IMG/VR virus record: IMGVR_UViG_3300009527_000006
Coordinates: 1-64,000 of that record
Origin: a virus
DNA: 64,000 nucleotides
Reading direction: 5' to 3' (one strand)
Every line of letters begins with the position of its first letter. Position 1 is the first letter of the stretch. Shown here in pieces: positions 31,142 to 57,809 of this stretch. The notes under the pieces were generated by a model that made no database searches, was not told the origin of the DNA, and saw only the letters and a program-made list of their open reading frames with translations. A program made the translations under genes and the position numbers.

Positions 31142-33475
31142 ATGGCTTCCTCATTCAAAGACTTCTTTATTGCAGTAGACAAATATCTTCAATCTAACGG
31201 AAAGGGAAGTGGAGGTAATACTATTGCACAGAAAATAAACAATCTTTTTGATAATACTAAATCACCTTTGTCTCTGAAAAGCGGCAGTGTTTTAGAAAAA
31301 CTTTATCTTAATATGAATAGCTTTGCTGATAGCATAGCATTAAATGAAATAATAATAAATGATTTGGGAAAAGATATTATTAATACTGGAGTTTCTAAAA
31401 ACTTCACAAAAATTAATACAGGAATAGGTAAATTTATCAGGAGTATGGATGCCATGTCTTCTGCGGCAGGCAATGTTACTTCTAAATTATCAGCATTTAA
31501 AATAAAAGGTCTTAATACCAGACCTGCAATTTCTGGAGCAGGAATAGCAGATGCATTTTCTAGCAGATTTACATCAACCAGAATAGATACTAATACTCGT
31601 AATGGGGTTCGTTACAGTCGTGCATTAGATGTAAATTTAAGTAAAAATAGCATAACAAACTTTCTTAATGAATGGACTATACGAAGCATCTATATCGGTA
31701 AAAATATTCCAATGCAAGTATCTATTCATAATATAGATGAAATTATTGCTCGCTGGACTAATCGACTTTCAACAGAAAAACTGCAAACACAGAACCCTAA
31801 TGGAACTTTAGATACTAAAAATCTTTTGAATGTAAGAATAATGGGATTGTCAGATGAAGTATCAAAATCAATCCGTCAATTATCTGGAAAATCTAACAAA
31901 GACTCTGAAAATTCAGGGGGATTGTTTGGCAGAATTTTCGGAACATTTGCTAGCGGAATCGCACTGTTTGGAACTCTGGCAGGATTAAATTATCTACTCA
32001 ATAATACTCCAGTAGGAGGGATGATTAAAAATTTCTTATGGGCAGGAATAGATTTGGTATGGGAAAATAGAGAACCTATTGGTGAATTTTTATATGAGCA
32101 AATAAATGGAGTATATAATTTAGTTACAGGTTACTTCAAAAATCTTTTCAATTTATTAGGTCTTAAAGACAGATTAGGAAAAGAAGGTGAAGGAACTGCG
32201 GTTTTTTTGACTAGATTAGCCCATAAAATCATAGGATTCTTTGATACTAAATTTCTTGGAGGATTGGGAGGAAAAATAGCTAATTCTGTAAAAAGTATAG
32301 CAAAATTACCCGAAACTATTCTTCAGAAAATTGGAGGATTTTTAATGGGGGACCAGATTAAACAAGGTCTGGATACTGTAATGAAAGAATTTTCTAAATC
32401 TTGGAATGTTAAAAATTTAATAACAGGAACAAAAACTCTGTTCAAAGGCGCTGGACTCACCAAAATAGCCGGATATGCCCTATCTCTTGTGGGAAAAGTG
32501 ACAAAGTTATTAAAATTTATACCCGGATTAGGAGCTATTATATCATTTTATTCAGCTTATCAAAGATTTTCAGCAGGTGATTATGTAGGAGGGCTTATTG
32601 AGCTTGGAGGAGCTATTCCGGTAGTCGGCTGGGGATTCATGGCTCTTAATATGTATCTTGATGCCGCAAAGAGTGAAGAAAAAAAATCTTGGAATGCTTC
32701 AATAGGCGATTTCTTAGGAAAGGCTGGTGATTGGATCATGAAAAACGTCAAAAATATTCCATTAATAGGGGGTTTAGTTGACATAGGAGTAGGAATTTAT
32801 GATATAATTAAGGGAGATTATAAGAAAGGTTTTGAAGAAATTTTCAACGGACTTTTCAGAATAACTCCTTTTGGATGGATAGCAGAAGCATATTCTGCTA
32901 TCACCGCTATTACAGAAAATTCCGATGATTCTTCTTCAAAAAACATACTTCCTAACAAAGGAAATTCTATTCCTATAGTTCAATCTATTATGGAATTTTT
33001 TACAAAACCAATTGATGCCTTTGTAGGATTTATAAAAGAATTATCTAATTCGGTTATAGGAAAACTAGCATCTATGGGAAAATCTGGTATTTTAGATACT
33101 CTTTGGAATTTCTCTATGCCGGGAATGGCATATAATGCGGTCAAAAAAAATTCTAATTCTACTTCTTTAGACGTAAAATCTAAAGAACTAATTAGAGGCG
33201 TTGCTGCTACTTCTGAAAAAACTGCTGCGGTTAAAGAGGATAGCAACAATATAATATATGCAGAACTAGAGAAAACAAGAAGTAGTATTGACGAAATGAA
33301 AGTTTTATTAGAGATGTATCTAAAAACTTCTATAGAGGGGATAGCAGGCATGGTAGATGCGTCTCTCAGAGGCTCACAATTAGTATCAGATACAATAGTA
33401 AAGACTACCCAAAATAATCAAAGACCTGTTGATACGAGCATATCAGAATTCCGTAGAAATATAGATCGTAAATAA
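31142..33475 (+). CDS. Tape-measure/baseplate-hub-like protein
   Basis: 777 aa; Gly-rich amphipathic repeats (LKFIPGLG..GDYVGGLIELGGAIP); lies in the baseplate cluster. Confidence 0.6.
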   Translation: MASSFKDFFIAVDKYLQSNGKGSGGNTIAQKINNLFDNTKSPLSLKSGSVLEKLYLNMNSFADSIALNEIIINDLGKDIINTGVSKNFTKINTGIGKFIRSMDAMSSAAGNVTSKLSAFKIKGLNTRPAISGAGIADAFSSRFTSTRIDTNTRNGVRYSRALDVNLSKNSITNFLNEWTIRSIYIGKNIPMQVSIHNIDEIIARWTNRLSTEKLQTQNPNGTLDTKNLLNVRIMGLSDEVSKSIRQLSGKSNKDSENSGGLFGRIFGTFASGIALFGTLAGLNYLLNNTPVGGMIKNFLWAGIDLVWENREPIGEFLYEQINGVYNLVTGYFKNLFNLLGLKDRLGKEGEGTAVFLTRLAHKIIGFFDTKFLGGLGGKIANSVKSIAKLPETILQKIGGFLMGDQIKQGLDTVMKEFSKSWNVKNLITGTKTLFKGAGLTKIAGYALSLVGKVTKLLKFIPGLGAIISFYSAYQRFSAGDYVGGLIELGGAIPVVGWGFMALNMYLDAAKSEEKKSWNASIGDFLGKAGDWIMKNVKNIPLIGGLVDIGVGIYDIIKGDYKKGFEEIFNGLFRITPFGWIAEAYSAITAITENSDDSSSKNILPNKGNSIPIVQSIMEFFTKPIDAFVGFIKELSNSVIGKLASMGKSGILDTLWNFSMPGMAYNAVKKNSNSTSLDVKSKELIRGVAATSEKTAAVKEDSNNIIYAELEKTRSSIDEMKVLLEMYLKTSIEGIAGMVDASLRGSQLVSDTIVKTTQNNQRPVDTSISEFRRNIDRK

Positions 33476-43455: not shown

Positions 43456-44184
43456 TTACTTGTTTTTTGAAGTACAGTAAATGGTTGTGTTTGTTTTGTT
43501 AGATGCTATTATTGAGCCTATATCTAGAATTTTTATATTGACTCCTTCTTTAACGGAAAGAATTCTATCTAAAAAATCTAACCGATATACATGTTCTTTG
43601 ATAGCAAAAGAGTTATTGGACGAAATTAAAATTTTCATTCCATCTAGATGATTTTGTTTTTTATCACCGAAGAATAGATATAAATTAGAATTTTCAGTCT
43701 CTAAACCAAATTTCTTATGCTCGGATGAAAAGGAAAGTCCTTTTTTAAGTATCTGATACTGTTTCTCGTCAAGAGAAAACTCAGCTTGAATCTTTTTATA
43801 CGCAAGTAAAGAAAAGGGATTGAATGCTGGAGGAGCAACACTTGCATCAGTCAATAATCTTATTCTAAAAGAGTGATCTGCCCCACAATAAGTCAAAAAT
43901 GAAAAATTGTTAATAGTTTCTACTCGAAGAACTACCAAATCATCTGCTATACATTCCAGTGCCTGACGAAGTTTAGAAATATCTAAATTTATTTTTTCCA
44001 GACCATCTGCAAATTCTTCTAATGTGAACGTAGAGTAAAAATGAACTTCATCTATTACAGATGAATAAATGGTATATACTTGATCATTTTTGAAGAAAAG
44101 TGTTCCCATTCCGTTTCTATTGATGGCTAATAGGGGATTTATAAACTCTGTAATAGCGCGTTTTCTATTGATCTTGAATGTCAT
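43456..44184 (-). CDS. gp45: Sliding clamp (gp45-like)
   Basis: Size, two-domain beta/alpha pattern and replication context. Confidence 0.55.
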   Translation of the reverse strand: MTFKINRKRAITEFINPLLAINRNGMGTLFFKNDQVYTIYSSVIDEVHFYSTFTLEEFADGLEKINLDISKLRQALECIADDLVVLRVETINNFSFLTYCGADHSFRIRLLTDASVAPPAFNPFSLLAYKKIQAEFSLDEKQYQILKKGLSFSSEHKKFGLETENSNLYLFFGDKKQNHLDGMKILISSNNSFAIKEHVYRLDFLDRILSVKEGVNIKILDIGSIIASNKTNTTIYCTSKNK

Positions 44185-44752
44185 TTTCGCTGTTGGTAGA
44201 AGGTTCTACTTCTTTAGTTAGTTTAGCATCTCTCACTTCCTCAAGCAACTCTTTAATCATCTTTTTTATTGCCCTAAGCTCAGACAGCATACTTTTTTCA
44301 TAATCAGTGTTTTTTTCCTTTTTAGTAGAAGATGACTTATCTTGGGATGCCTCAAATCTATTATATTGAGGCATTGTGAAAGTAGCACCGCCTGAAGGAA
44401 TATTAGGATTTTGTAAAGGATTATTATACTGAGGAGGAGCATAATTCACCGGAGCATTATGATCTACAATCATATTTCCTTTTTCATCTATTCCTACTGG
44501 AACGGGAATAAAAGTTGGGGGGGTTTGCTCAATATTAACATTAAAATTTCCTACAGGATGTGACTGTATTTGCGGAATATGTGCCTGTTGAGGAATATTT
44601 CTATTAGAGCTTATAAATTTTTTCGGTGACACGTCATGGGTTCCCATAATATTATTAAGTTCACTTCTACGACTATTACTAAACAGTCTTTTCATTTCTT
44701 GTGAAGTAGAATGTGCTAATTTAGCCAAATCCATCATATCATCAGTTTGCAT
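44165..44752 (-). CDS. Pro/Gln-rich hypothetical protein
   Basis: 195 aa ORF. Confidence 0.6.
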   Translation of the reverse strand: MQTDDMMDLAKLAHSTSQEMKRLFSNSRRSELNNIMGTHDVSPKKFISSNRNIPQQAHIPQIQSHPVGNFNVNIEQTPPTFIPVPVGIDEKGNMIVDHNAPVNYAPPQYNNPLQNPNIPSGGATFTMPQYNRFEASQDKSSSTKKEKNTDYEKSMLSELRAIKKMIKELLEEVRDAKLTKEVEPSTNSENDIQDQ

Positions 44753-44781
44753 GGAGATTATTTATAAGTTAATATTAATAT

Positions 44782-44815
44782 AAAAAGGGGGAAGACGTAG
44801 GTCTTCCCCCTTTTT
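44782..44815 (-). terminator. Terminator after the ssDNA-binding protein gene
   Basis: AAAAAGGGGGAAGAC-GTAG-GTCTTCCCCCTTTTT. Confidence 0.85.
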
Positions 44816-44825
44816 TAATATCTAA

Positions 44826-45779
44826 TTAGATATTAACATCGTCATCATCATCATCATCCAAAATAAAGTCATTAAGACCATCGTCATCACCATCATCATT
44901 ATCAACAACTCTATTCTGTGTTTGAGAGCGAGAATTTGTCGAGCTATTAACAGATTCATTGGCAATAGGACCATCCTCCCCAAACCAATACTGGTCAATG
45001 AGAGATTTGAGTTCGTCTTCAGACTTTACCGCAGGAACTAATTCCAAAAGATTGTGAACTGAATTTTCAATCCTCTCGTAATCAGAAGGTGACAAATTAT
45101 CAACTGCTTTACTGTCAGCAAATTTTGAAGTAGAATAATTATTCCAATCAGCCTTTGTAGTAACACGGACAATCAGCGACCTTCCTTTAGGTGAAAGATC
45201 AAATGCCTTAATTCCTACATCATCTCCACCTAAAACTTCTTCATCAATAAGTTTCGCTAAATCACTCTTAATTTCACCAGTTTTCTTGTCTATACCAGCA
45301 GAATATTTAAGGACAACTACTGTTCCTATTTTTTGTTGTGCATCAGGATCATCGCCTTCCACTTTGTGCAAGAAGGCATTTACCAATTCATGACGCTGTG
45401 GAATCAATTTGTAACTACGCTTCATAGCATCTTCATCACCACTCTTTTTGGCTTCACTAAAAAGCTTCCATTGTAGTTTGTTGATGTAATCATTTTTTGC
45501 TTGAGTAGGATCTGCATCTGATAGAGATCTTCCTAGATAAATGTATTCAGAAGGAGTTGTCAACGTCTCAAACCCAATATCTTTATAGTTTACAAAAGTT
45601 TGATCATTTCCATCTGAATCTGTGGAACGCAAAAGTCTTACATAGTATTTGCAATTTTTCTTGAATTTCAAGATTCTTGGATCAGAATTTCCAGACCCTC
45701 CACTTTTTTCCTTTTTAAGCTTTTCTGCTTTTGAATTTCTAATTTTTTCTAATGTTTCTTCTAATGTTGGTTTTCTCAT
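44826..45779 (-). CDS. gp32: ssDNA-binding protein (gp32-like)
   Basis: DPRILK..YYVRLL; AFDLSPKG; NYSTSKF; acidic tail. Confidence 0.8.
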   Translation of the reverse strand: MRKPTLEETLEKIRNSKAEKLKKEKSGGSGNSDPRILKFKKNCKYYVRLLRSTDSDGNDQTFVNYKDIGFETLTTPSEYIYLGRSLSDADPTQAKNDYINKLQWKLFSEAKKSGDEDAMKRSYKLIPQRHELVNAFLHKVEGDDPDAQQKIGTVVVLKYSAGIDKKTGEIKSDLAKLIDEEVLGGDDVGIKAFDLSPKGRSLIVRVTTKADWNNYSTSKFADSKAVDNLSPSDYERIENSVHNLLELVPAVKSEDELKSLIDQYWFGEDGPIANESVNSSTNSRSQTQNRVVDNDDGDDDGLNDFILDDDDDDDVNI

Positions 45780-45835
45780 AATATATTATTGTTCTTATTG
45801 TTCTTATTCTAGATAGAATATCTATCCGAAAGTAT

Positions 45836-46459
45836 TTATAGTTTATTTGCCAGTATAACCTGATTTATAGTTTTTTTAAGCAATTTACTGGCAGAATATT
45901 TTGTATGTAAAAAATTTAATTGATCTTTCGTATCACCAAGATAAAGCTCATATTCTTCTGGTGGAAGATTAAGAAGTTTGGCAAAACCCTCTAGATAGAA
46001 AACGGTATATAGGTTAGTGCTTTTATTTTTAAGATGAAGAAGATAATCTGGCTGATGAACAGTAGCATAGTTTAGGTAGTCTGTCAACTTTATTTTCTTT
46101 TCTTTACAGAAATCCAGCACAAATTTTACGCATTCTGTAGTATATCTAATATTATCAGGATGATCGGTATTTTCAGATACTAGTAAGTTTACATAGCTAG
46201 AACATACTAGCATACACTTAACTGTAGAAAAATAATTCAAAGAAAAAAACTTTTTATCTTTATAAATTTTATAGGGTGCGATAAAATATGTTCTTGACAT
46301 TAGGTGAGGATGTTTTTGAAAAAACTTTTCAAGTTTTTCAAGAGCACCCTTTTTAGAATCATCTAATTTTTCATATTTTAGCAAACTTTTACATGGGCGA
46401 TCATTTGCTTCAGCAAGAGCCTCTAGGAAAAGATTGTAAATTTTTAATTTATTGTCCAT
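45836..46459 (-). CDS. Hypothetical protein (possibly gp59-like helicase loader)
   Basis: Likely start MDNKLK; adjacent to gp32. Confidence 0.5.
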   Translation of the reverse strand: MDNKLKIYNLFLEALAEANDRPCKSLLKYEKLDDSKKGALEKLEKFFQKHPHLMSRTYFIAPYKIYKDKKFFSLNYFSTVKCMLVCSSYVNLLVSENTDHPDNIRYTTECVKFVLDFCKEKKIKLTDYLNYATVHQPDYLLHLKNKSTNLYTVFYLEGFAKLLNLPPEEYELYLGDTKDQLNFLHTKYSASKLLKKTINQVILANKL

Positions 46460-46913
46460 TGTTGCGACTATACAGAAATTTATCAATATTATCAAGACTT
46501 TCAGGACCAACTAGTTCTCCACTTATAGCGATAGAATGGCCGTCTTTGAGCAAAGTTACTAATGACTCAACCACATCACTTGATAAAAAATCAAATTTAG
46601 CTCCTAGAAAAAATAAATATATTTGTTCTAAAGTTACAAGACCGTCTTTCCATTTAATATAATAAGAACAGAAATCAGTATATTTTACGAGAATATCTAG
46701 ATAAGAATAAGCATTACTGTCGTTGTCTAAAATATTACTACAATCTATATGATCCTGATTTAAAAATTTTTCTTTACTAGAAAGGTAAGTTCCGCAATAA
46801 TAAACAATTTCAGTATCTTTTGACACCGTATTTGTAAAAAATTGTAGCGTTAGTGCAAATGATTCTAACCAAGTATCAAAATCGTAGTCAGGGCAGAGAG
46901 TTTTAATTTTCAT
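46449..46913 (-). CDS. Hypothetical protein
   Basis: Likely start MKIKT after TTGACT-16-TATTCT. Confidence 0.55.
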   Translation of the reverse strand: MKIKTLCPDYDFDTWLESFALTLQFFTNTVSKDTEIVYYCGTYLSSKEKFLNQDHIDCSNILDNDSNAYSYLDILVKYTDFCSYYIKWKDGLVTLEQIYLFFLGAKFDFLSSDVVESLVTLLKDGHSIAISGELVGPESLDNIDKFLYSRNNGQ

Positions 46914-46998
46914 AATAATAGAATACAGCACATAATTCAGAAGTCAAGCGCTAAATTCAATCATTTAGATATTTTGAAGACACTACTAAATCACAAGA

Positions 46999-47087
46999 GG
47001 CGAACAAAACGGATGCAGACAACGCTCTATAAGTTGTTTGTCACATTCATAGTCTTTTATTCGCGTGTCTGATCCGAAGCGTTCGGG
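46999..47087 (+). repeat. attC-like site 1 (type A)
   Basis: GGCGAAC-AAAA-CGGATGCAGACAACG...CGTGTCTGATCCG-AAGC-GTTCGGG; two extrahelical bases. Confidence 0.88.
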
Positions 47088-47113
47088 CAATACGCATCCA
47101 CACAAAATCACGC

Positions 47114-47554
47114 ATGTATAATAGACCGTCTAATTCTGAAGTTGCGGAAATTACTGGATACAATCTTCCTATAGAAGAAATCTCAGAATTTCCCACAGCT
47201 AAACAGCAACAAGAAGGAGGTTATATTTTGAAGTATATTGGCCGCATCTCAGATACTTGTGATACCTTCTTGAAAACTGCACATGGTAAGGTAGTTGCTA
47301 TAATATTGCTTATCCATGGAATCATCGGATTTGCTAGAGATGCATTTGATGGTGCAACATACATCTATAATGCATCTGCTCCTATGCTTGAAAGGATTGA
47401 GACTTTTGTATTTTCTCATAAGAACCAAGAAGTCTCTCCCGAATACCTAGTATTGATCCCAAAAGAAACGCACCTGACACTGCCCGTAAAAGATTGGGCT
47501 GATTTTCCGGCAGGAACCCAATTTGCGCCAGCCAGTAGCATAGATTACACATAG
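47114..47554 (+). CDS. Cassette 1 gene, membrane protein
   Basis: 146 aa, one TM segment; starts 27 nt after R'. Confidence 0.7.
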   Translation: MYNRPSNSEVAEITGYNLPIEEISEFPTAKQQQEGGYILKYIGRISDTCDTFLKTAHGKVVAIILLIHGIIGFARDAFDGATYIYNASAPMLERIETFVFSHKNQEVSPEYLVLIPKETHLTLPVKDWADFPAGTQFAPASSIDYT

Positions 47555-47633
47555 CCAACGATCCAAAATATATAAATGCAAATATTTCACAACAAACCCA
47601 TACTTTATTCAAATAATTATATTTATTAGACAT
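47382..47633 (-). CDS. Cassette 1 antisense ORF/transcript
   Basis: TATAAATA 6 nt upstream of ATG; overlaps the top-strand gene. Confidence 0.35.
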   Translation of the reverse strand: MSNKYNYLNKVWVCCEIFAFIYFGSLAMCNLCYWLAQIGFLPENQPNLLRAVSGAFLLGSILGIRERLLGSYEKIQKSQSFQA

Positions 47634-47669
47634 TTTACCTATTTATAAAGACTTTAGACTAAAACAAGA

Positions 47670-47759
47670 CCCGAACAAAGAAACTGGAGACAACAGCTCA
47701 GCATAGTTATTCTCCTATATTAGTTCTGTGTTCGCTGTGTCTCAGTTTAGACGTTCGCC
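47670..47759 (+). repeat. attC-like site 2 (type B)
   Basis: CCCGAAC-AAAG-AAACTGGAGACAAC...GTGTCTCAGTTT-AGAC-GTTCGCC. Confidence 0.88.
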
Positions 47760-47783
47760 TAACAACACACAGCCTCTACTACA

Positions 47784-48056
47784 ATGTATAAAACTCAGCC
47801 TAAATATCGGGCCATCATTCGTTTCTCCTTGGATAAGGATGAGAGTTCAAAGTTTCGCAACTCTGTTATTAGAAAACTTAGAAAAGCTAAATTCACCAAC
47901 ACAAATAAGACTGGTTCTTGGGAGACTCCATCCGCAGATTTATCTATTATTCAGTCATTAGTCTGCACCGTTATGAACGAACTAGGTAAAGTAACGAATG
48001 ACGACGGAAAGCCCGTAACATTGGACCATATGTGGATGTGCATAGATAAAGTTTAA
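47784..48056 (+). CDS. Cassette 2 gene, hypothetical
   Basis: 90 aa ORF directly after R'. Confidence 0.7.
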   Translation: MYKTQPKYRAIIRFSLDKDESSKFRNSVIRKLRKAKFTNTNKTGSWETPSADLSIIQSLVCTVMNELGKVTNDDGKPVTLDHMWMCIDKV

Positions 48057-48223
48057 TCTTCTTCGTTCCACCTAGGGTCATCATCTGACCATTCATTCCA
48101 TCCAGATTCGATTTCGTCTGAGTCTGAATTGATAACTATTTTTGTTTTAGATTCAGTATGACACCCACAGTTGCCACATACGCCGCTAATAACGACTTCT
48201 ATAGGTTGAGAATTATTTTTCAT
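48053..48223 (-). CDS. Cassette 2 convergent 56-aa ORF (CxxCxCH, acidic Trp-rich tail); not in track
   Basis: MKNNSQPIEVVISGVCGNCGCH...WNEED*; ATAAATA 7 nt upstream; stop overlaps partner stop (TTAA). Confidence 0.55.
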   Translation of the reverse strand: MKNNSQPIEVVISGVCGNCGCHTESKTKIVINSDSDEIESGWNEWSDDDPRWNEED

Positions 48224-48261
48224 AATCAGCTATTTATTGGCAGCTCTTGCTATAAACAAGA

Positions 48262-48350
48262 GGCGAACAAAACGGATGCAGACAACGCTCTATAAGTTTT
48301 ATGTCACATTCAGAGTTTAGTATTCGCGTGTCTGATCCGAGACGTTCGTC
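48262..48350 (+). repeat. attC-like site 3 (type A)
   Basis: GGCGAAC...CTGATCCGAGAC-GTTCGTC. Confidence 0.88.
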
Positions 48351-48937
48351 TTATGAAATGCCACCCAGTGAGTCTGCGCTTTCTTGCCGCTACGGTGGCC
48401 GTAGAGCGGGCGTTCTGGCGTGAGTGCCAGCACTTCGCGGAGCGGGATTTCAGCCTCGCACCATTTGAAGATCATCGTTCCATTCACTTTCAGGACACGG
48501 AAGCATTCAGCGAATCCCGCCCGCAGGTCGTCGCGCCATGTCGCATCCAGAAGCCCGAAGTCGAAGGCGATGCGTCCCGTTGCCCCGGCTCCTTTATGGA
48601 AGTGCGGCGGATCGAATACCACATGCCAGAACGACTCATCAGGGAACGGCATGTTTCGGAAGTCCACCACCATATCAGGCGCGACGGTTTTCGGGGTGCG
48701 CCCGATGGTTCCCGGCGTTCCCACGTCGATGATTCGCGTGCCTTGGCGTTTGTCCACATACAGGGCGCGGTCATCCTGTTTATCGAACCAGAACATTCTG
48801 GTTGAGCAGCACGCATCCAATACCGGAGGCAAAGACGAACAAGTCGCTGCATGCAACCCGCTTTCTGCGTGCTGTTGGCGCGTTAATGTGAAGAGGTCAT
48901 CCATAGGTGTATCGGTGTATTGTGTCAGCGGGTGCAT
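48317..48937 (-). CDS. Cassette 3 SAM-dependent methyltransferase, antisense to the array
   Basis: VLDACC..MFWFDK, VFDPPH and GFAECFRVLK motifs; GC-rich; start in attC4, stop in attC3. Confidence 0.85.
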   Translation of the reverse strand: MHPLTQYTDTPMDDLFTLTRQQHAESGLHAATCSSLPPVLDACCSTRMFWFDKQDDRALYVDKRQGTRIIDVGTPGTIGRTPKTVAPDMVVDFRNMPFPDESFWHVVFDPPHFHKGAGATGRIAFDFGLLDATWRDDLRAGFAECFRVLKVNGTMIFKWCEAEIPLREVLALTPERPLYGHRSGKKAQTHWVAFHKTNVSDQTREY

Positions 48938-48953
48938 GAGCTAGGCGTTCGCC
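48834..48953 (+). repeat. attC-like site 4 (type C)
   Basis: GACGAAC-AAGTC-GCTGCATGCAACCCGC...GCGGGTGCATGAGC-TAGGC-GTTCGCC. Confidence 0.85.
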
Positions 48954-48962
48954 TAAAAACCA

Positions 48963-49217
48963 ATGCACTCATCACAAACTAATTCGCAGATGATAATCGC
49001 GCACATGCTAGCCAATGATAACGGAGCCATTTTTCATTTTGAGGACTATAGATTCAATGTTCGTCCTGAAGATCGAGTCACTTCCAGCAATTGGCCTAGT
49101 GGTATAACATTGCACATTAGACTTTCTAGCACAGGGCTGAGCGCAGCTTCTTACGAGAACGAGACAGTGCTCGGTGAATATGTGGATGAAAGAGGAACTC
49201 CCATTTTGCCTTATTAG
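48963..49217 (+). CDS. Cassette 4 gene, hypothetical
   Basis: 84 aa ORF starting 10 nt after R'. Confidence 0.65.
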   Translation: MHSSQTNSQMIIAHMLANDNGAIFHFEDYRFNVRPEDRVTSSNWPSGITLHIRLSSTGLSAASYENETVLGEYVDERGTPILPY

Positions 49218-49459
49218 GAATTATTACTTGGATCATTCGGAATTGCATGGCCGAATCTCAGCACTTCACCATTGTCATATAGATAGGCCATTCCACGAAT
49301 TCCAAAAGGACCATTATACTTACCTTTCTCATTCTGTATTTTTATGTTCTCGTGCATAGTCCATCTTCGCCAGATTCCAATAGCTTCATCATACGGAAGT
49401 GCCTCTGGATCTGGGTATTTGGTTAAGTCTATTGGGTTGTCTAAATTTAACATATTCAA
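49214..49459 (-). CDS. Cassette 4 convergent ORF
   Basis: 81 aa; ATAAGTA upstream; stop overlaps partner stop. Confidence 0.55.
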   Translation of the reverse strand: MNMLNLDNPIDLTKYPDPEALPYDEAIGIWRRWTMHENIKIQNEKGKYNGPFGIRGMAYLYDNGEVLRFGHAIPNDPSNNS

Positions 49460-49493
49460 AGCTACTTATTCGTAGTCAAATGCTAAAACAAGA

Positions 49494-49583
49494 GGCGAAC
49501 AAAGAAACTGGAGACAACAGCTCAGCATAGCTATTCTCCTATATTAGTTCTGTGTTCGCTGTGTCTCAGTTTAGATGTTCGCC
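49494..49583 (+). repeat. attC-like site 5 (type B)
   Basis: Near-identical to site 2; GGCGAAC...GTTCGCC. Confidence 0.88.
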
Positions 49584-49598
49584 CAACCTCACCACACC

Positions 49599-49784
49599 AT
49601 GTCTATTATAAAGAAACCTAGTTCGTGCGTATTTTGCAGATCTGCACTGATTAAAGGTCCGATTAAGAGAGATCGTAATTTAAATGAAACTATTGAAATG
49701 AAGAGTGTCGTTTATATTTGTGAGCAATGTAATTTTGTTCACGAATTTAATATTCATACTACTAAAAAATCTAAGATGAAGTAG
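49599..49784 (+). CDS. Cassette 5 zinc-ribbon protein
   Basis: CVFC...CEQC. Confidence 0.6.
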   Translation: MSIIKKPSSCVFCRSALIKGPIKRDRNLNETIEMKSVVYICEQCNFVHEFNIHTTKKSKMK

Positions 49785-49935
49785 TAGACACGAAACATGC
49801 AAGCCCATCACATTGAGCATTCCACATTTCATCCAGAATTCTATCATTATTTTCCTGTTCTTCTTTGGAAAGTCTCATCCAATGACACTGCTCCACTTCT
49901 AACCATTCACGTATCTTTGCTTTTATCCATTGCAT
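49771..49935 (-). CDS. Cassette 5 convergent 54-aa ORF; not in track
   Basis: MQWIKAKIREWLEVEQCHW...TTSS*; ATAAGTA 9 nt upstream. Confidence 0.5.
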   Translation of the reverse strand: MQWIKAKIREWLEVEQCHWMRLSKEEQENNDRILDEMWNAQCDGLACFVSTTSS

Positions 49936-49974
49936 AGTAGTCAATACTTATGAAGCTAATAAACAGAAACAAGA

Positions 49975-50063
49975 GGCGAACAAAACGGATGCAGACAACG
50001 CTCTATAAGTTTTATGTCACATTCATAATTTTATATTCGCGTGTCTGATCCGAGACGTTCGGG
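49975..50063 (+). repeat. attC-like site 6 (type A)
   Basis: GGCGAAC...GTTCGGG. Confidence 0.88.
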
Positions 50064-50219
50064 TAAAACAGAACATAAACACCACAATGAATGAATCTAC
50101 GTTAGTTGATTGCGCTAAATGGTTATATGAAAAGCAGCAAGAGAACCTAAAAGCCGGAAAGAATCTACTTTGGCAGCCACATATAATAACCGTTCTTTTA
50201 AACTTACAAAAATCTAAAG

Positions 50220-51446
50220 TCATACTTTTAAGATATAAACTCTCGATTTTTTGTTAAATTCCTGCTTCACAGACGGGCTAACCAAAGTCGTTTCCGACAA
50301 TGGTGAACTCCCATCTCCACAGGCTTGAATTCCCGAAGAACTTTCGGTATAAATTTGTTTCAGATTCAAACTCGCATTTAAATCTCTATCTATTTTCATA
50401 TCACACATTTTACATTCAAATACTCGGTCTGTCAACTTCAAATCTGAATTTTTCCATCCGCAACATGAACATAATTTAGAACTGGCGTAGAAAGTATCTG
50501 CGAAGACAACTTTTCTATTATTCCATTTCGCTTTATATTCAATTTGGCGACGAAATTCATAAAGTCCTACGTCACTGATAGCCTGAGCCAAACAGTGATT
50601 TTTCAACATATTGCTTACTTTCAAATCTTCCAACACAATTACATTGTTTTTCTGTATTATGTTAGAAGTGATTCTATGTAAGCAATCTTTACGAATATTT
50701 GATATGTGATAATGTAATTTTGCTAACTTTTGTTTTGCTTTTCCATAATTTTTACTTCCTTTTTTCTTTCTTGATAATTGTTTTTGTTTGCGTTTTAGTC
50801 TCTTGAGATTTTTCTTTAATGCTTTTGGATTTTCATAAGTTGTCCCATCTGAGCAAGTAGCTAAAGTTTTAATACCTAAATCAATTCCTACTACCTCATT
50901 CTTGGCGTTAGAATGCTCTCTGTCAGGTGTCTCTACTTGAACTGATACAAACCACTTACCCGCACGTTTCGAGACTGTAGCAGACAGTATTTTACAATCT
51001 GTTGGGATGTAATCTTTCTCGGATAATTTGAGTTTGTCGATTCGTGGTAGCTTAATGTAATCAGATTCAACTGAAATCGCGCCGTCTAGTCTGAAGGATT
51101 GCTTTTCGTTTTTCTTAGATTTAAATTTTGGAAATCCTTTCTTACCTTTAACTTTCTTTTTACAACGAGTGAAGAAATTTTGAAATGCTTTATCACAATC
51201 TCTTAACGCATTTTGTGGAGAAGTCTTGCTTGAATTATACATCCAAGGAACATCTGTCTGTTTTAGCTTGTTTAATTCTCTATGAATCTCAATAGCATTT
51301 TGAATTTTCTCTTTCTTATCAAATTGTTCTTTCTTTTTAGCTAATGCCCAATTATATGCCCATCTAGCGCAACCAATATGCTGTAATAACAAGGTTTGTT
51401 GCTTGTTATTTACATCTAGCTGAACTTTATAGGCGCGGAGAATCAT
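50220..51446 (-). CDS. tnpB: TnpB RNA-guided endonuclease
   Basis: GIDLG, VLEDL, CSCCG/CKMC and DRDLNAS: RuvC D-E-D intact. Confidence 0.95.
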   Translation of the reverse strand: MILRAYKVQLDVNNKQQTLLLQHIGCARWAYNWALAKKKEQFDKKEKIQNAIEIHRELNKLKQTDVPWMYNSSKTSPQNALRDCDKAFQNFFTRCKKKVKGKKGFPKFKSKKNEKQSFRLDGAISVESDYIKLPRIDKLKLSEKDYIPTDCKILSATVSKRAGKWFVSVQVETPDREHSNAKNEVVGIDLGIKTLATCSDGTTYENPKALKKNLKRLKRKQKQLSRKKKGSKNYGKAKQKLAKLHYHISNIRKDCLHRITSNIIQKNNVIVLEDLKVSNMLKNHCLAQAISDVGLYEFRRQIEYKAKWNNRKVVFADTFYASSKLCSCCGWKNSDLKLTDRVFECKMCDMKIDRDLNASLNLKQIYTESSSGIQACGDGSSPLSETTLVSPSVKQEFNKKSRVYILKV

Positions 51447-52308
51447 TTTAATCTTTCTAAACAAATATCATAATACTCTTTTTCTTTTTCGATGCCGATA
51501 AACTGACGATTGAGATTTTTGGCGGCAACCAGAGTTGTTCCCGAACCAGCAAAAGGATCGAACACCAAATCCTCTTTATTTGAGATAGACTTCACCAAGT
51601 CTTCCATCATATTCAACGGTTTTTCACATGGATGTTTGTCTTTTCTTTGCGAGACTATTTCATATTCAATTACATCTTCAAATGAAGATAGCGATAACGA
51701 ATCAAATTTTCGTTTGGATAATTTAATACCTAAATCTCCTCTAATTTGGGAAGAAATTTTGGAGATGGAAAGCATCTACCACATTCCCAATTTGATACTT
51801 GACCACCATTATTAACGTTTCCATAAGCACCCAATATTTCAGTAAGCTCTTTTACCGATACCCCCTTAGAAATGCGGGCATTCTTAATGTCATTTGGATA
51901 AGAATCTTGTGAAAAATAAATTATTCTTTCTGATGCTGGATATGGTCGTCTAAGGGAATTTTTATTACACTTATTTTTCCAACCCTCACTCCCCTTATTT
52001 GGAAAAGTTTTCTTCCACACAATTTCAGATTGGAAATTGAAATATTGATTTATCAGGACGGCTAAAAATGGAGCCAATGATGGCTTACAAAAAACGTAAC
52101 CACTACAAGTATTTTTCATCTTCGGTTTAAGAATTTTGAAAAAATAATCAAACCATTTTAAAAATTCAGTATCGTTATCATGTTCATTGTCCCAAGTGTG
52201 CTTTTTAACATTGTGATAAGGTGGATCGGTGACAAGGATATCCACGCTTCCATCTGGAATGTCCTTCATCAATTCTAAACAGTCGCCATGCCAAATTTCT
52301 TGTTTCAT
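51443..52308 (-). pseudogene. Beta-class N4/N6 DNA methyltransferase with internal Cro/C1 HTH, frameshifted
   Basis: GDCLE..DPPY (51730-52308) and HPCEKP..DPFAGSGTT (51443-51775) are in different frames; one extra T near 51732 gives LEEILGIKL. Confidence 0.8.
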
Positions 52309-53336
52309 TCCATCGCCTCCTTTTCTTTCTTTTTACGATTCTGTGAGCTAATCATACCCAATCCTTCTCTAATTAGATACAGGCGACCAGTCGAAGTTTT
52401 TAACTCTTTTGCTACGCCTCTCCAAGTTTGATGTTTATCAAACAAATCGTGCAGTTGTTTTACTGTAATATCTGAACGCTTTTTCCGTAAAATTTGCTGA
52501 GATAGACACTCTAAATATAATTCATACTTTCTATCCAAATACACTTTAGCGTTTGAGTATATTGGTCTTAATATGTTTTGAACTAACTCGACCCCCGCCG
52601 AAGATATGCAGCAAGTTTCTGAATCTCCCTCTCCATATTTTGATAGGATTTTTGCGCGACATTTGCTATACGAAAGAATATACTCTTGAAATTTCTCAAT
52701 AACAAGCCTATTTCCAACAAGATTAATTGTCCACACCCAAGATTTTTTATATTTGGGTTCAAGCGTTTTAGAAATGCAGCCATCACCGTCAAATATGCCT
52801 CGCCAAAAATGACAGTGTAAATCCTTTGGAATTAAATTTAACGGAGGAATAAAGCTAAAAGATTTTCTCGGTAAAATACCAAATTTAGCCAAATCATTGC
52901 ATATTTTTCTGTTACCAATTACAATTCGACACGACTCAAATATTTTACTATTATCACCCCCTTCAAAAGAGGGCGAACTTCTACATATTTTAATTGGATG
53001 CGCCGAACGGCAAAATTTCTTAAATTTTTCTAAGTGCAACAAATCTGACTTTTTTAAACCTATATTCAATCCTCCATAATCGGTTACGTTGCCGTCGGCG
53101 GCAATGAATCCAAGCCAATAAGCCTTATCTTCTGTGTCAATTTTTTCAAAAATAGAATCGTCAATAGTATATTTAGAGTTATTTTTAATTTTGATACCCC
53201 TTTTTTTGGCTTCTCTGGTGCAGCATTCGCTACTTAATCCGTAAACAGCCGCCGCCCTTTGTGCAGAATCCCCGTTTACATATAGATTAATCATTCCGTC
53301 CTTTTCTTCTTGTGTAATAGTGCGTCTCATATACAT
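52305..53336 (-). CDS. LAGLIDADG endonuclease
   Basis: AYWLGFIAADG and FWRGIFDGDG motifs; LDRKY. Confidence 0.9.
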   Translation of the reverse strand: MYMRRTITQEEKDGMINLYVNGDSAQRAAAVYGLSSECCTREAKKRGIKIKNNSKYTIDDSIFEKIDTEDKAYWLGFIAADGNVTDYGGLNIGLKKSDLLHLEKFKKFCRSAHPIKICRSSPSFEGGDNSKIFESCRIVIGNRKICNDLAKFGILPRKSFSFIPPLNLIPKDLHCHFWRGIFDGDGCISKTLEPKYKKSWVWTINLVGNRLVIEKFQEYILSYSKCRAKILSKYGEGDSETCCISSAGVELVQNILRPIYSNAKVYLDRKYELYLECLSQQILRKKRSDITVKQLHDLFDKHQTWRGVAKELKTSTGRLYLIREGLGMISSQNRKKKEKEAME

Positions 53337-53352
53337 ATATTTACACTAAAAA

Positions 53353-53913
53353 TCACTCTTTTTCACAAAAATCTGATAAAACTTCATCATCGGGATAGAT
53401 TTCTGTAGTCACCTCTTCCACCTTTTCAATTCTAACTCCATAGGAATTAAAATAAGACAAAAGATAATTAAAACAAAATCTTGATAATCTATCTTTATGC
53501 TCAATTAAGACTACATCAATTTCTTTCTTTTCTACTAACTCAAAAAGTTTCTGCAATTTCTTGCGATTGTCGTTCATTCCTGAACCAACTTCATCAAAAA
53601 CAGCAACAATAGAATAACCACGCTTCAATGCCTCTGTAGTCATTCTGCCGACTTGTCTTTCTAAATCACCTTTAGTCTTCTGTTCATGTGAACTAACGCG
53701 ACAATAGATAGCCACACGCTTACCATCTGTTACTTTAACAGGTTCTACATAGATTCCCGCCAATTTCTCAATATCGGCTCTGTAATAGCGTCTATGACCA
53801 CCTTTTGTATGGAATGGCGTTAATTTGCCTTCTCGCTCCCAATTTCTAAGAGTTTCGTCGGAAACGCCTAAAATGGACGCAGCATCACTAATTGATAGAA
53901 TCTTTTTATCCAT
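53353..53913 (-). CDS. tnpA: IS607 serine recombinase TnpA, apparently C-terminally truncated
   Basis: MerR-like HTH (GGHRRY), YCRVSS, DEVGSG, DRLSRF; lacks the usual ELVED..FSARLYG helix. Confidence 0.9.
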   Translation of the reverse strand: MDKKILSISDAASILGVSDETLRNWEREGKLTPFHTKGGHRRYYRADIEKLAGIYVEPVKVTDGKRVAIYCRVSSHEQKTKGDLERQVGRMTTEALKRGYSIVAVFDEVGSGMNDNRKKLQKLFELVEKKEIDVVLIEHKDRLSRFCFNYLLSYFNSYGVRIEKVEEVTTEIYPDDEVLSDFCEKE

Positions 53914-54082
53914 TTTTGTCTATCAATCCTTTCTGTTGAAACAACCTAAACCATTCGTCATAGATTCGTTGAAATTCCTCTACGGTTGGAACTTCATCTA
54001 ATTCAAACGGAATATCATGGATAACTCCATCATCGGTTTCAAATTCTGTTGCTGTAACTCTTGTAATCATTTTTGGCTTCAT
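53906..54082 (-). CDS. 58-aa acidic ORF at the IS left end; not in track
   Basis: MKPKMITRVTATEFETDDG...KNG*; overlaps the tnpA start. Confidence 0.6.
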   Translation of the reverse strand: MKPKMITRVTATEFETDDGVIHDIPFELDEVPTVEEFQRIYDEWFRLFQQKGLIDKNG

Positions 54083-54148
54083 ATATATTTACACTAAAAG
54101 TTTAGATTTTCTACGAAAAAAGTGAAAATATTTTAACTTTCTTTAGAT

Positions 54149-54177
54149 ATTTTAGATTATCGGGCAACTGTTGTCAA
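54149..54177 (-). promoter_or_regulatory. Sigma70 promoter at the IS607 left end
   Basis: TTGACA-17-TAAAAT directly inside the GG core. Confidence 0.7.
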
Positions 54178-54273
54178 CCCTCGGAAAGTTGTGGTTACTA
54201 TTTGTTTCCTGTTTTGCGATATTATCCACTGCTCTGATCACCGAGTTTATAAAACAAGATGGGTATAAGTTGT

Positions 54274-54531
54274 TTAAGTCCAGCCTAAATAATGAACACA
54301 CAAAAGCATCGGAACCACCCCCATCACAAACAACAAAACACATAAAATAATCAACCATCCTAATGCCATGAAGAGGCATTCTACAAAAGCCTTAAACTCA
54401 CCATCAAACCCGAACAAAACGGATGCAGGCAACACCTCTGGGCTGTCTGTCGTATTATTCATAGTATTTTCGTTCGGTGTGCCTGATCCGAGACGTTCGC
54501 CTTCTGCTAATTTAGTTTGTTTTTTCATCAA
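54274..54531 (-). CDS. Antisense membrane ORF reading through attC7
   Basis: 85 aa; ATAAATA upstream; alternative ATG (MNNTTD) inside the attC7 loop. Confidence 0.5.
   Translation of the reverse strand: MMKKQTKLAEGERLGSGTPNENTMNNTTDSPEVLPASVLFGFDGEFKAFVECLFMALGWLIILCVLLFVMGVVPMLLCVHYLGWT
54409..54501 (+). repeat. attC-like site 7 (type A variant)
   Basis: CCCGAAC-AAAA-CGGATGCAGGCAACACC...GGTGTGCCTGATCCG-AGAC-GTTCGCC; compensatory stem changes. Confidence 0.88.
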
Positions 54532-54699
54532 AAGCTATTTATGAAATAATATTATTAATTCAACCAGCATAATAATAACCATGTTTAACTACCTAAAGAC
54601 TAGCTTGTGTCAATTTTGTAAAGGAACCACTGACCCATCCACAAAGAAAGAGATTTAAACTCTTCATTTGAGATAAAGTGTGTTATTTATATTTTTGAG

Positions 54700-54790
54700 G
54701 CTCTATAAGTTTTATGTCACATTCATAGCTTAGAACTCACTATGTCTCAGCGTAAACTTACCATTCATGTCTGCGCTAGGCGTTTGCCTT
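54700..54790 (+). repeat. Degenerate attC remnants
   Basis: GCTCTATAAGTTTTATGTCACATTCATAG (type A loop) and GCTAGGCGTTTGCCT (type C end). Confidence 0.6.
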
Positions 54791-54807
54791 AACTGCATAA
54801 TGTTCAA

Positions 54808-56499: not shown

Positions 56500-56793
56500 C
56501 TAGACTATAGCATATGTAACCTCTAACAGTCTAGAAGAATCTTTAGATAGGTATTTCATTTCTACCCATTTTTCAAAATAATCTCCGGTAACTTGATCTT
56601 CCAGTTCGGTAGGCTGGTCAGTATAAAAATTACCGCTTTTATATAATTTATATAATTGTCCAGCAGTGACTACTAATTTTGCCCCATTAGCATCTACTGT
56701 TTCTATAGCAGGGGTAGATTCATCAATATGAAAATATTGAATCTTAGGTTTGTCTACAAACATCGAAGTCTTTTTTATTGTGACACGAATCAT
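56500..56793 (-). CDS. Hypothetical protein
   Basis: 97 aa ORF between UvsX and gp41. Confidence 0.6.
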   Translation of the reverse strand: MIRVTIKKTSMFVDKPKIQYFHIDESTPAIETVDANGAKLVVTAGQLYKLYKSGNFYTDQPTELEDQVTGDYFEKWVEMKYLSKDSSRLLEVTYAIV

Positions 56794-57809
56794 ACGTTAT
56801 CTGGATTTAATGCAAACATCTTATTGCACATAGTTTTGAAAGACGCATCTTCTACTAGTGATTGCATAAGATTATCAGTTTCTTCTAGCTCTTTGCGTCT
56901 AAAAACTTTGTCATTGCCAATGAGTTTATACCATCCTTGCTTTTCTGAATAGATATGTTTAGTTTCAAGTGCAAGGTCAAATATTCCAGAGTATTTAGAA
57001 ATTCCATCATCAAAACTAACGGTTACTGGAAAATCGGATTTTTCTCTGACATATCTAGAAAATTTTGATTTCAATACAAAATCAAATCCAGTCAATTCAG
57101 AATCAACCTTCTTTTGTCGTTTTCCAATATTCCACAACGTATGTCCAGCATATTCTGCCCCTCTTCCTCCAGAAGCCTTTTCTTCAGGAAACATGTCCAT
57201 TGTTTGGTAGCTATGATTAATTACTATACAAGTAATGCCCTTGAAATTTATCTGTCCATTAGCAATTCGGAATACAGATTTCAACGCCTTTGCTCTAGTG
57301 AAATCAGCTTTATCATTTTCGTTCTTTGCATCCTCTACTTCTTTCGCACTGGCTAACATACCAATACTATCGACGCAAATAAGAACCTTATCACCGACTT
57401 CTATATCAGTAACTAAATTAGCCAAATCACTCTTCCACTGTTCTACAGTAAAAATAGGTCTTCTGTCAAAATTTTCACCCGGACGAATATCTATTCCTAC
57501 TCCTTCAAAATATGAATTAGGTGAGCCGAACTCCGAATCATAAAAAATGATGAGATTATCTTGGTCCTTATACTTCCTTTGGAACGACTTCATTGCTTGA
57601 ATCATTAGATTAGTTTTGAAGTGCTTTGGTGGAGCAGCAATCATAACTATCCCAGCCGGAAGACCTTTATCGAAAGATCCTGATATTGCTAAATTAAGAA
57701 TAGGAACATCAAAAGGTATAAAATTTTCAGATTCCCAATAATTAGATTTCTCTAATATTTTTTTATCAATTACAGTATTGGCACGAAGTTTATCAAAAAG
57801 TTTTGACAT
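56790..57809 (-). CDS. uvsX: RecA-like recombinase UvsX
   Basis: AAPPKHFKT, YDSEFG, DSIGMLAS and KSVFR motifs. Confidence 0.95.
   Translation of the reverse strand: MSKLFDKLRANTVIDKKILEKSNYWESENFIPFDVPILNLAISGSFDKGLPAGIVMIAAPPKHFKTNLMIQAMKSFQRKYKDQDNLIIFYDSEFGSPNSYFEGVGIDIRPGENFDRRPIFTVEQWKSDLANLVTDIEVGDKVLICVDSIGMLASAKEVEDAKNENDKADFTRAKALKSVFRIANGQINFKGITCIVINHSYQTMDMFPEEKASGGRGAEYAGHTLWNIGKRQKKVDSELTGFDFVLKSKFSRYVREKSDFPVTVSFDDGISKYSGIFDLALETKHIYSEKQGWYKLIGNDKVFRRKELEETDNLMQSLVEDASFKTMCNKMFALNPDNV

Follow-up and report, generated by a model that had tools for sequence, protein, structure and literature searches.

An attC cassette array of the Verrucomicrobiota type, without an integrase, in the replication module of a T4-like phage

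Seven intact attC-type hairpin sites of 89-120 nt, together with one truncated remnant, lie at positions 46999-54788 of a 64-kb stretch of viral DNA (the window), which represents the first 64,000 nucleotides of the 92,025 bp IMG/VR virus record IMGVR_UViG_3300009527_000006, a record estimated to be ~35% complete and analysed here over its full length. Judging from their sequence, we consider it very likely that these sites form an integrase-less attC cluster, inserted in the replication/recombination module of a T4-like phage, with its cassettes exchanged by integron recombination. With seven attC sites within 7.5 kb and no integron integrase (IntI) in the record, the array is a cluster of attC sites lacking integron integrases (CALIN); the record does not hold a complete integron, with intI, attI and the Pc promoter beside the array, and a distant phage intI is possible given the estimated completeness.

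As to the sites themselves, a preliminary description of this DNA, made from its letters alone, had noted seven imperfect palindromes of 89-120 bp with attC anatomy and had sorted them into three types (1/3/6/7, 2/5 and 4). The anatomy is borne out by alignment, pairing and fold, and the same three types emerge from the alignment. The sites are listed from R'' box to R' box, with their scores by two covariance models, R1 and R2, the second of which is described below.

46999-47087, + strand: site S1, type 1; R'' GGCGAAC, R' GTTCGGG; R1 110 bits, R2 80.3 bits, E 8e-19; the leftmost site, with only a cassette-tail fragment to its left
47670-47759, + strand: site S2, type 2; R'' CCCGAAC, complementary to the S1 R' GTTCGGG; R2 62.4 bits
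48262-48350, + strand: site S3, type 1; R' GTTCGTCTT; R2 82.1 bits
48834-48953, + strand: site S4, type 4, 120 nt, GC-rich; R'' AAAGACGAAC, complementary over 9 nt to the S3 R'; R2 49 bits, E 2e-10
49494-49583, + strand: site S5, type 2, 94% identity to S2; R2 61.2 bits
49975-50063, + strand: site S6, type 1; R' GTTCGGGT; R2 83.5 bits
54409-54501, + strand: site S7, a variant of type 1 (compensatory change, A-T to G-C); R'' ACCCGAAC, complementary to the S6 R'; R2 86.4 bits, E 2e-20
~54700-54788, + strand: S8, a 5'-truncated attC; loop, L' and R' (GTTTGCC) retained, R'' and L'' lost

All seven intact sites have a common layout, consisting of CGAAC, a spacer of 3-4 nt, a 5-bp stem, a bulged G, a 6-bp stem, a bulged A, a stem of 2-3 bp and a variable loop, followed by the complementary arm without bulges, a spacer and GTTCG. 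In the alignment of the seven, all 131 pair cells are standard (100%), over all 19 modelled pairs, while shifting the partner columns lowers the pairing to 14-40%; 9 of the 14 L-box pairs are changed on both sides among the three site types, and both bulged bases are invariant. The - strand folds to a hairpin of R box, spacer and L box, with T and C bulges on the 3' arm, 6 bp apart, a lack of bottom-strand hairpins with extrahelical bases having been named in the preliminary description as a result that would speak against it, and these extrahelical bases are found on the arm opposite the crossover (AAC-cleaved) arm. The S8 remnant forms no hairpin (z = -0.12). Model R1 scores the sites at 94-117 bits on the + strand versus 13-21 bits on the - strand and, with filters off, finds no further site in the whole record. 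A search of Rfam (4227 families) returned chance-level matches only, and no Rfam family matches attC.

The point of exchange can be placed from two patterns. One is that the likeness among sites of the same type (S1, S3, S6, S7) has an abrupt right-hand end at GTTCG, while on the left it tapers off into the cassette. The other is that the R'' of a cassette is complementary, over 7-9 nt, to the R' at the start of that same cassette (six of six cassettes), R'' matching the R' within its own site at one of the seven sites. From this sharp right edge and this complementarity, the crossover is placed at G|TTCG in the right-hand R' box, the + strand being the top strand, and insertion of the cassettes as circles follows from the complementarity between a cassette's opening bases and the R'' in its own attC. 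The crossover side and the bulge arm are two independent inferences, and they agree with integron geometry. The cassettes so delimited are as follows.

47082-47753, + strand: cassette C1, 672 bp, 37% GC; + strand open reading frame (ORF) 47114-47554 (146 aa), overlapping - strand ORF 47382-47633
47754-48344, + strand: cassette C2, 591 bp; convergent ORFs 47784-48056 (+) and 48053-48223 (-)
48345-48947, + strand: cassette C3, 603 bp, 57.5% GC; orphan DNA methyltransferase on the - strand, ORF 48317-48937
48948-49577, + strand: cassette C4, 630 bp; convergent ORFs 48963-49217 (+) and 49214-49459 (-, found only in this phage)
49578-50057, + strand: cassette C5, 480 bp; convergent ORFs 49575-49784 (+, with CxxC pairs) and 49771-49944 (-)
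50058-54495, + strand: cassette C6, ~450 bp of own sequence, split by an IS607-like element
54496-54788, + strand: remnant of cassette C7 with S8

The GTT-to-GTT spacings amount to 672, 591, 603, 630, 480 and 4438 bp, the last being ~450 bp without the IS607-like insertion, and agree with the unit sizes given earlier, including the 450 bp of the last unit with the insertion sequence (IS) removed. C7, between S7 and the S8 remnant, measures 287 bp.

The relationship of these sites to bacterial integrons was approached by scanning a 22-nt site motif over one genome per prokaryotic species. The motif is present in at least 120 genome contigs, and among those listed 77 of 80 are from Verrucomicrobiota (Verrucomicrobiaceae, Prosthecobacter, Akkermansiaceae, Luteolibacter, Brevifollis, Chthoniobacteraceae), often in arrays, with up to 12 matches in 8 kb. 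IntI above the curated TIGR02249 cut-off is encoded in four of five motif-carrying genomes versus none of 14 control genomes, and an IntI homologue occurs within at least 12 further loci that were picked by the attC motif alone. At 13 of 14 bacterial loci the array lies beyond the 5' end of intI with the sites pointing away from it, the canonical arrangement; the exception is a Luteolibacter contig from a metagenome-assembled genome (L089), in which intI and the attC array are co-oriented, with the array downstream of intI. Model R2 was built solely from 27 attC sites of IntI-linked Verrucomicrobiota arrays (97% of cells paired in this training set, 11 pairs with compensatory changes). It matches exactly the seven sites of the window, on the + strand, with E values of 2e-20 to 2e-10; elsewhere in the 92-kb record, as well as in the related metagenome contig L188 and in phage MW202573, it has no match, so that the covariance-model check suggested in the preliminary description came out in favour of attC. 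On this evidence from sequence and predicted fold, the seven phage sites belong to the attC family of Verrucomicrobiota chromosomal integrons, and Verrucomicrobiota are probably the host phylum of the phage. To our knowledge, there are almost no cultured phages of Verrucomicrobiota, and the case indicates that a phage which could not be placed by other means can be assigned a host through its attC family.

The carrier is a large, deep-branching, lytic-type T4-like phage from groundwater, without a close cultured relative. The record (33% GC) encodes T4-type DNA polymerase, tail sheath, major head protein, a gp46-like nuclease subunit, UvsX, a gp41-like helicase and a gp32-like single-stranded DNA-binding protein (SSB). 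The identity of gp41 to that of any cultured phage is below 28%, the search of IMG/VR with the gp41-like protein found no relative, the single comparable one being the metagenome contig L188, and megablast of the 10-kb array region against 50,697 phage records gave no match. The neighbourhood of the array is made up of the following genes.

44826-45779: gp32-like SSB, left of the array
46449-46931, - strand: o160, the left flanking phage gene
54808-55089, - strand: o93, the right flanking phage gene
55135-56490: gp41-like helicase, right of the array
56790-57809: UvsX, right of the array

The array thus sits between gp32 and gp41, as had been stated before. In L188, whose gp41 is 61% identical, the order uvsX-o97-gp41-o93-o160-o224-gp32 is kept, the homologues of o93 (11475-11744) and o160 (11737-12153) overlap by 8 nt, and a search with the attC model finds no match. 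Because o93 and o160 abut in L188 without attC sites, window positions 46932-54807 are best seen as a clean, lineage-specific insertion of 7.9 kb. The end of S8 falls 19 nt ahead of the stop codon of the flanking phage gene.

Evidence for the movement of cassettes comes from comparing sequencing runs: the probable source run (groundwater, 2017) and runs from other freshwater samples, among them X2 (freshwater, 2022, a separate study), X3 and X4. In X2 to X4 the array is partly uncovered (cassette C5 in X2, for example) and the contigs are short and shallow, so gaps are not read as absence. One X2 joint, from 48342 to 48946, skips 603 nt, that is, exactly the methyltransferase cassette C3, with CGTTCG alone common to both sides, and, because the joint shares only these letters, between the unlike types S3 and S4, the crossover is placed in the R' box. 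An X4 joint, from 48253 to 49967, skips C3 to C5. Contigs from both X2 and X3 match the S2-type site through GTTCGCCTAA and continue into two different sequences; another X2 contig matches S6 through GTTCG and then diverges; and in an X4 contig the sequence is another one until 5 nt short of the S1 R''. An identical, fixed order in all relatives had been named beforehand as a result that would speak against an active array, and what is found is that cassette content varies (C3 missing, C3 to C5 missing, other sequence after R') and that L188 is without the array. As read from these contigs, natural phage populations differ by whole cassettes at the exact R' crossover point, and the phage cassette array is apparently still active.

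A number of observations weigh against cassette exchange by integron recombination. The 92-kb record, of which the estimated completeness was given above, encodes no IntI (TIGR02249) and no tyrosine recombinase (PF00589), and it has no attI or Pc promoter, so that the absence of intI and attI earlier noted for the window extends to the whole record. Because of this, the array presumably depends on a host integrase. The left edge of the array is an attC, not an attI, and no cassette start (TTCGCC) that would make a cassette 'C0' to the left of S1 is found in 44001-47000. The array opens with a cassette-tail fragment and a full attC and closes with a truncated attC; both edges look scarred, and neither is as a simple IntI insertion into a plain GTT site would leave it, the edges having decayed. 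The X4 deletion lies within 59 nt that are identical between S3 and S6, and homologous recombination could explain it. The contigs with the variants, from metagenomes sequenced at low depth, are short, and they are not linked in phase with the backbone of the phage. The methyltransferase gene, and possibly many other cassette genes, are reversed relative to bacterial cassettes. Finally, the sites depart from the published attC consensus, in which the R' core GTTRRRY is complementary to R'' RYYYAAC, the spacer is 5-6 nt and the first bulge is usually G at 16 (PMC5027507): the phage R' is GTTCGSS, with C in place of the consensus purine, the spacer has 3-4 nt, and a C at 17 forms the first bulge of the bottom strand. 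The fourth R' base is always C (GTTCGSS) in the phage sites and in the IntI-linked bacterial sites, with GTT/AAC kept, and the invariant C bulge at position 17 is likewise present in the IntI-linked bacterial sites of this family.

Some of these points would also suit an inert relic, that is, a piece of a bacterial or phage array acquired once by illegitimate or homologous recombination and passive in the phage genome, with the differences between populations due to general homologous recombination and deletion and not to an integrase. The integrase that is not in the record, the non-canonical edges (tail fragment and S1 on the left, truncated S8 on the right), the IS tolerated within C6 and the X4 deletion in 59 nt of repeat identity could all be accommodated in this way, but the X2 variant, which lacks exactly one cassette and shares 6 nt between unlike attC types, is not expected of T4-type homologous recombination; the perfect pairing of 7/7 hairpins, kept by compensatory changes while the genome is AT-rich, speaks for a fold under selection; and a cassette of 57% GC amid cassettes of 36-41% GC has exact G|TT borders. 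We therefore regard a relic as unlikely.

It is very improbable that the assembler joined a bacterial integron array to a phage contig. Short-read contigs do break at the repeated sites, the internal cassette order resting on the record assembly without independent confirmation, and one cassette is of bacterial GC, but the other six of the seven are phage-like in GC, and the block fits exactly between genes that abut in L188. In the source run, Logan contigs span both the flanks and the array, with a uniform depth of ~6-11; they connect o160 with S1, and they lead from the C6 tail, through S7, C7, S8 and o93, into gp41. In the independent sample X2 both flanks are mismatch-free, at 100% identity, and a single mismatch-free contig runs from S7 through C7, S8 and o93 to gp41. 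Reads revealing a chimeric assembly at the array edges, which the preliminary description had considered a possible outcome, are not what these contigs present. Least probable of all would be regulatory hairpins of the phage (terminators, or PeSL-like promoter plus stem-loop cassettes) that are shuffled by phage recombination and have no relation to integrons: the sites do lie between convergent or tandem small genes, like terminators, and a - strand promoter-like motif is located just left of most of them (TATAAATA by S2, looser by S3, S5 and S6), but the same site family is found beside true integron integrases, in canonical orientation, at 13/14 bacterial loci, R2, trained on bacterial sites alone, recovers all seven, no T run follows the hairpins, and the crossover signature is at G|TT.

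For a cluster exchanged by integron recombination, the following course of events can be envisaged. An integron integrase, encoded either by the host or in the two thirds of the phage genome that lie outside the record, would act during infection, its substrate being attC hairpins extruded from the abundant single-stranded phage DNA, and it would excise, insert and reshuffle cassettes by attC x attC recombination; an excised C3 circle, for example, would carry the joint S4-G|TTCGTCTT. The GC-rich methyltransferase cassette may have been gained from a Verrucomicrobial cassette pool, and its product probably shields the phage DNA from restriction. The low-GC cassettes, with proteins seen in this phage alone, have probably resided in phage genomes for a long time. 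A wider proposition, which we advance tentatively, as possible but somewhat short of an even chance, is that a strictly lytic phage keeps a working cassette bank of its own, AT-rich, with phage-only proteins, apparent convergent gene pairs and a bottom-strand late-promoter-like motif, its cassettes being exchanged among phages via a host or a yet-unseen phage integrase, and that this phage pool is separate from that of bacteria, with host cassettes like that of the methyltransferase brought in from time to time.

Turning to the cargo, C3, with 57.5% GC, resembles the bacterial arrays (52-61%), the other cassettes having 32-41% and the phage 33% GC. The C3 methyltransferase (phrog_954, E 8e-61; FDPPH motif) has 4376 homologues, the best of them 92% identical, and one fragment, 94% identical, is named Verrucomicrobiota, the close matches (92-94%) comprising metagenomic and Verrucomicrobiota proteins. 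Its ORF is without a stop codon of its own and reads into S3, the stop being borrowed from this neighbouring site, and the homology to the best relative stops at ...KTN, which corresponds to the reverse complement of GTTCGTCTT and thus to the cassette boundary. Homologues with 46-52% identity are encoded in three viral contigs (L044:4975-5469, L037:4230-4718 and L187, which is MW202573, 2701-3183); the one in L037 overlaps a significant R1 site (E 0.0005 to 0.0012), and the R1 match adjacent to the one in L044 is at chance level (E 0.47). A methyltransferase of the C3 type may be a recurrent phage cassette.

Within 47082-50057 and 54180-54495, each low-GC cassette appears to be occupied by a convergent pair of ORFs that touch or overlap at their 3' ends, the overlap being 4-14 nt in C2, C4 and C5 and 173 nt in C1. 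The - strand ORFs begin just left of the next attC, after a motif resembling a T4 late promoter (TATAAATAGG ahead of 47633; CAATAAATAG, GAATAAGTAG and CATAAGTATT ahead of others), and the + strand cassette ORFs begin 15-30 nt past R', after A/C-rich leaders without a Shine-Dalgarno sequence. The protein of the + strand ORF of C1 is found only in this phage; it is also encoded, along with other proteins of this phage, on a 126-kb contig. The - strand ORF 54274-54531 was considered as a gene and rejected, its sole 'homologues' being translated attC sites.

The element that splits C6 belongs to the IS607 family, as it combines a serine-recombinase TnpA, with an N-terminal MerR-type helix-turn-helix (HTH), with TnpB.

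~50190-54175, - strand: IS607-family element, ~4 kb, its ends approximate and taken from loose contig ends in four runs
50220-51464, - strand: TnpB (OrfB_IS605, E 2e-32; also a Cas12f1-like TNB domain)
51730-52308 and 51443-51775, - strand: N6/N4 DNA methylase, split into two overlapping ORFs (Pfam)
52305-53336, - strand: LAGLIDADG protein (Pfam)
53353-53913, - strand: serine-recombinase TnpA (Resolvase, E 2e-19; MerR HTH, E 6e-12)

The LAGLIDADG protein and the split methylase are thus cargo between tnpA and tnpB. In contigs of four runs the ends of the IS are joined to other sequences, so that it has further insertion sites, and a diverged copy in X2 is without ~1.07 kb spanning the LAGLIDADG gene. 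Two joints, from 51015 to 54118 (X4) and from 52349 to 53423 (X2), were rejected as array variants, as they are on diverged IS copies, with 31 and 61 mismatches. One X2 contig follows the start of C6 (50087-50191) up to the start of the IS and is then unlike the window sequence beyond the IS, so that either there are two forms of C6 or the insertion of the IS was accompanied by rearrangement.

The same attC family can also be recognised in other viral records. It is borne by about 30 IMG/VR viral contigs of 52-61% GC, in some of them as arrays (loci L015, L026, L036, L037, L038, L040, L044 and others). One example is L015, with 9 sites adjoining SSB, DUF1376 and DUF1064 genes. Some of these records are rated complete with terminal repeats, including one of 39 kb (inverted terminal repeats) and L037 of 71,632 bp (direct terminal repeats). 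None of the 10 attC-family viral records checked encodes an IntI above the cut-off. Phage-borne CALINs of the Verrucomicrobiota attC family may be common among Verrucomicrobia phages. Another record of interest is L191, the IMG/VR record of locus L020 (52 kb, 81% complete), which encodes at 32579-33472 a nearly full-length IntI-like protein (236 bits, E 1e-71), its score just below the 265-bit cut-off; the 23-nt search pattern is matched exactly ~1.6 kb away from this gene, and R1 finds no site in the L191/L020 locus at E <= 0.01. The record may represent a phage or prophage that bears a complete integron.

As to known systems, the Vibrio superintegron is the textbook case of a sedentary chromosomal integron with homogeneous attC sites. 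The sedentary chromosomal integrons of Verrucomicrobiota (L160, L170, L178, L180 and others) are like the phage array in their attC family, in their geometry and orientation rule, in being arrays of short cassettes and in the complementarity of the cassette start to the R'' of its own attC. The phage array differs from them in that it is without intI, attI and Pc and is carried by a virus, in its GC (33-41% versus 52-61% in the bacterial arrays) and in that its cassettes, in place of single promoterless forward genes, apparently contain gene pairs that converge and a methyltransferase gene in reverse. T4-type phages reportedly possess 'mobile regulatory cassettes' of another kind, the PeSLs, which Arbiol et al. 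are said to have described in 2010: stem-loop repeats flanking small accessory ORFs in variable regions, with a proposed modular shuffling, each repeat said to consist of an early promoter and a stem-loop and to be shuffled by homologous recombination. They share with the array the repeated stem-loop elements around small accessory ORFs, and they are unlike it in that the sites of the array are attC sites of the integrase type, which bacterial integrons have as well, and in that the crossover point of these sites is fixed.

The canonical attC sites of mobile integrons (attC-aadA7, VCR2; Nivina et al., 2016, PMC5027507) are like the phage sites in the R''-L''/L'-R' imperfect palindrome with AAC/GTT triplets, in the unpaired spacer and in the variable loop. 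By definition (PMC5027507), the bulges of an attC are on the arm that faces the cleaved AAC, the first bulge being separated from the last by a 6-bp stem, with a conserved T at position 23/24; in the phage sites, likewise, the bulges are opposite the cleaved AAC arm, the inter-bulge stem is 6 bp and the last bulge is a T at position 24, the first bulge being the divergent C at 17 already mentioned. With 89-120 nt, they also fall within the published length range of 57-141 nt (PMC5027507).

The closest published parallel is the screening of 10,705 phage genomes by Qi, Rajabal, Ghaly, Tetu and Gillings (2023, Front Microbiol; PMC9892861), in which 17 CALINs were found, virulent phages being among their carriers, five of the six phage attC sites put to the test recombined with attI1, and five methyltransferase cassettes were noted. 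The earlier statement that such arrays are described mainly from bacterial chromosomes and plasmids accordingly needs updating, in so far as the CALINs of virulent phages in that source (PMC9892861) are concerned. The CALINs of Qi et al. (PMC9892861) are like the present one in having attC-bounded cassettes in a lytic-type phage without IntI and in their DNA methyltransferase cargo: phage MW202573, with a putative DNA methyltransferase in its CALIN, encodes an S-adenosylmethionine-dependent methyltransferase 47% identical to the C3 protein. MW202573 has no site matching R1 or R2, its CALIN being of another attC type. The differences (PMC9892861) are in the number of sites, at least two per CALIN and three in TJE1 versus seven intact ones here, and in the large T4-like carrier, the Verrucomicrobial attC family and the mostly phage-like composition of the cassettes; whole-cassette differences between populations at the R' box, seen here from contigs, are not shown by Qi et al. 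(PMC9892861). The array is a natural case for asking whether lytic phages actively use the integron system, providing a known bacterial attC family, a candidate host phylum, named integrase candidates, such as the Verrucomicrobial IntI gene at L178:67-1005, and variants that differ by single cassettes at the exact crossover, and it indicates that anti-restriction genes, such as those for orphan methyltransferases, can enter a virulent phage as integron cassettes. Overall, while phage CALINs were already known, what is added here is a T4-like carrier, seven intact sites, an attC family that suggests the host and a natural single-cassette polymorphism.

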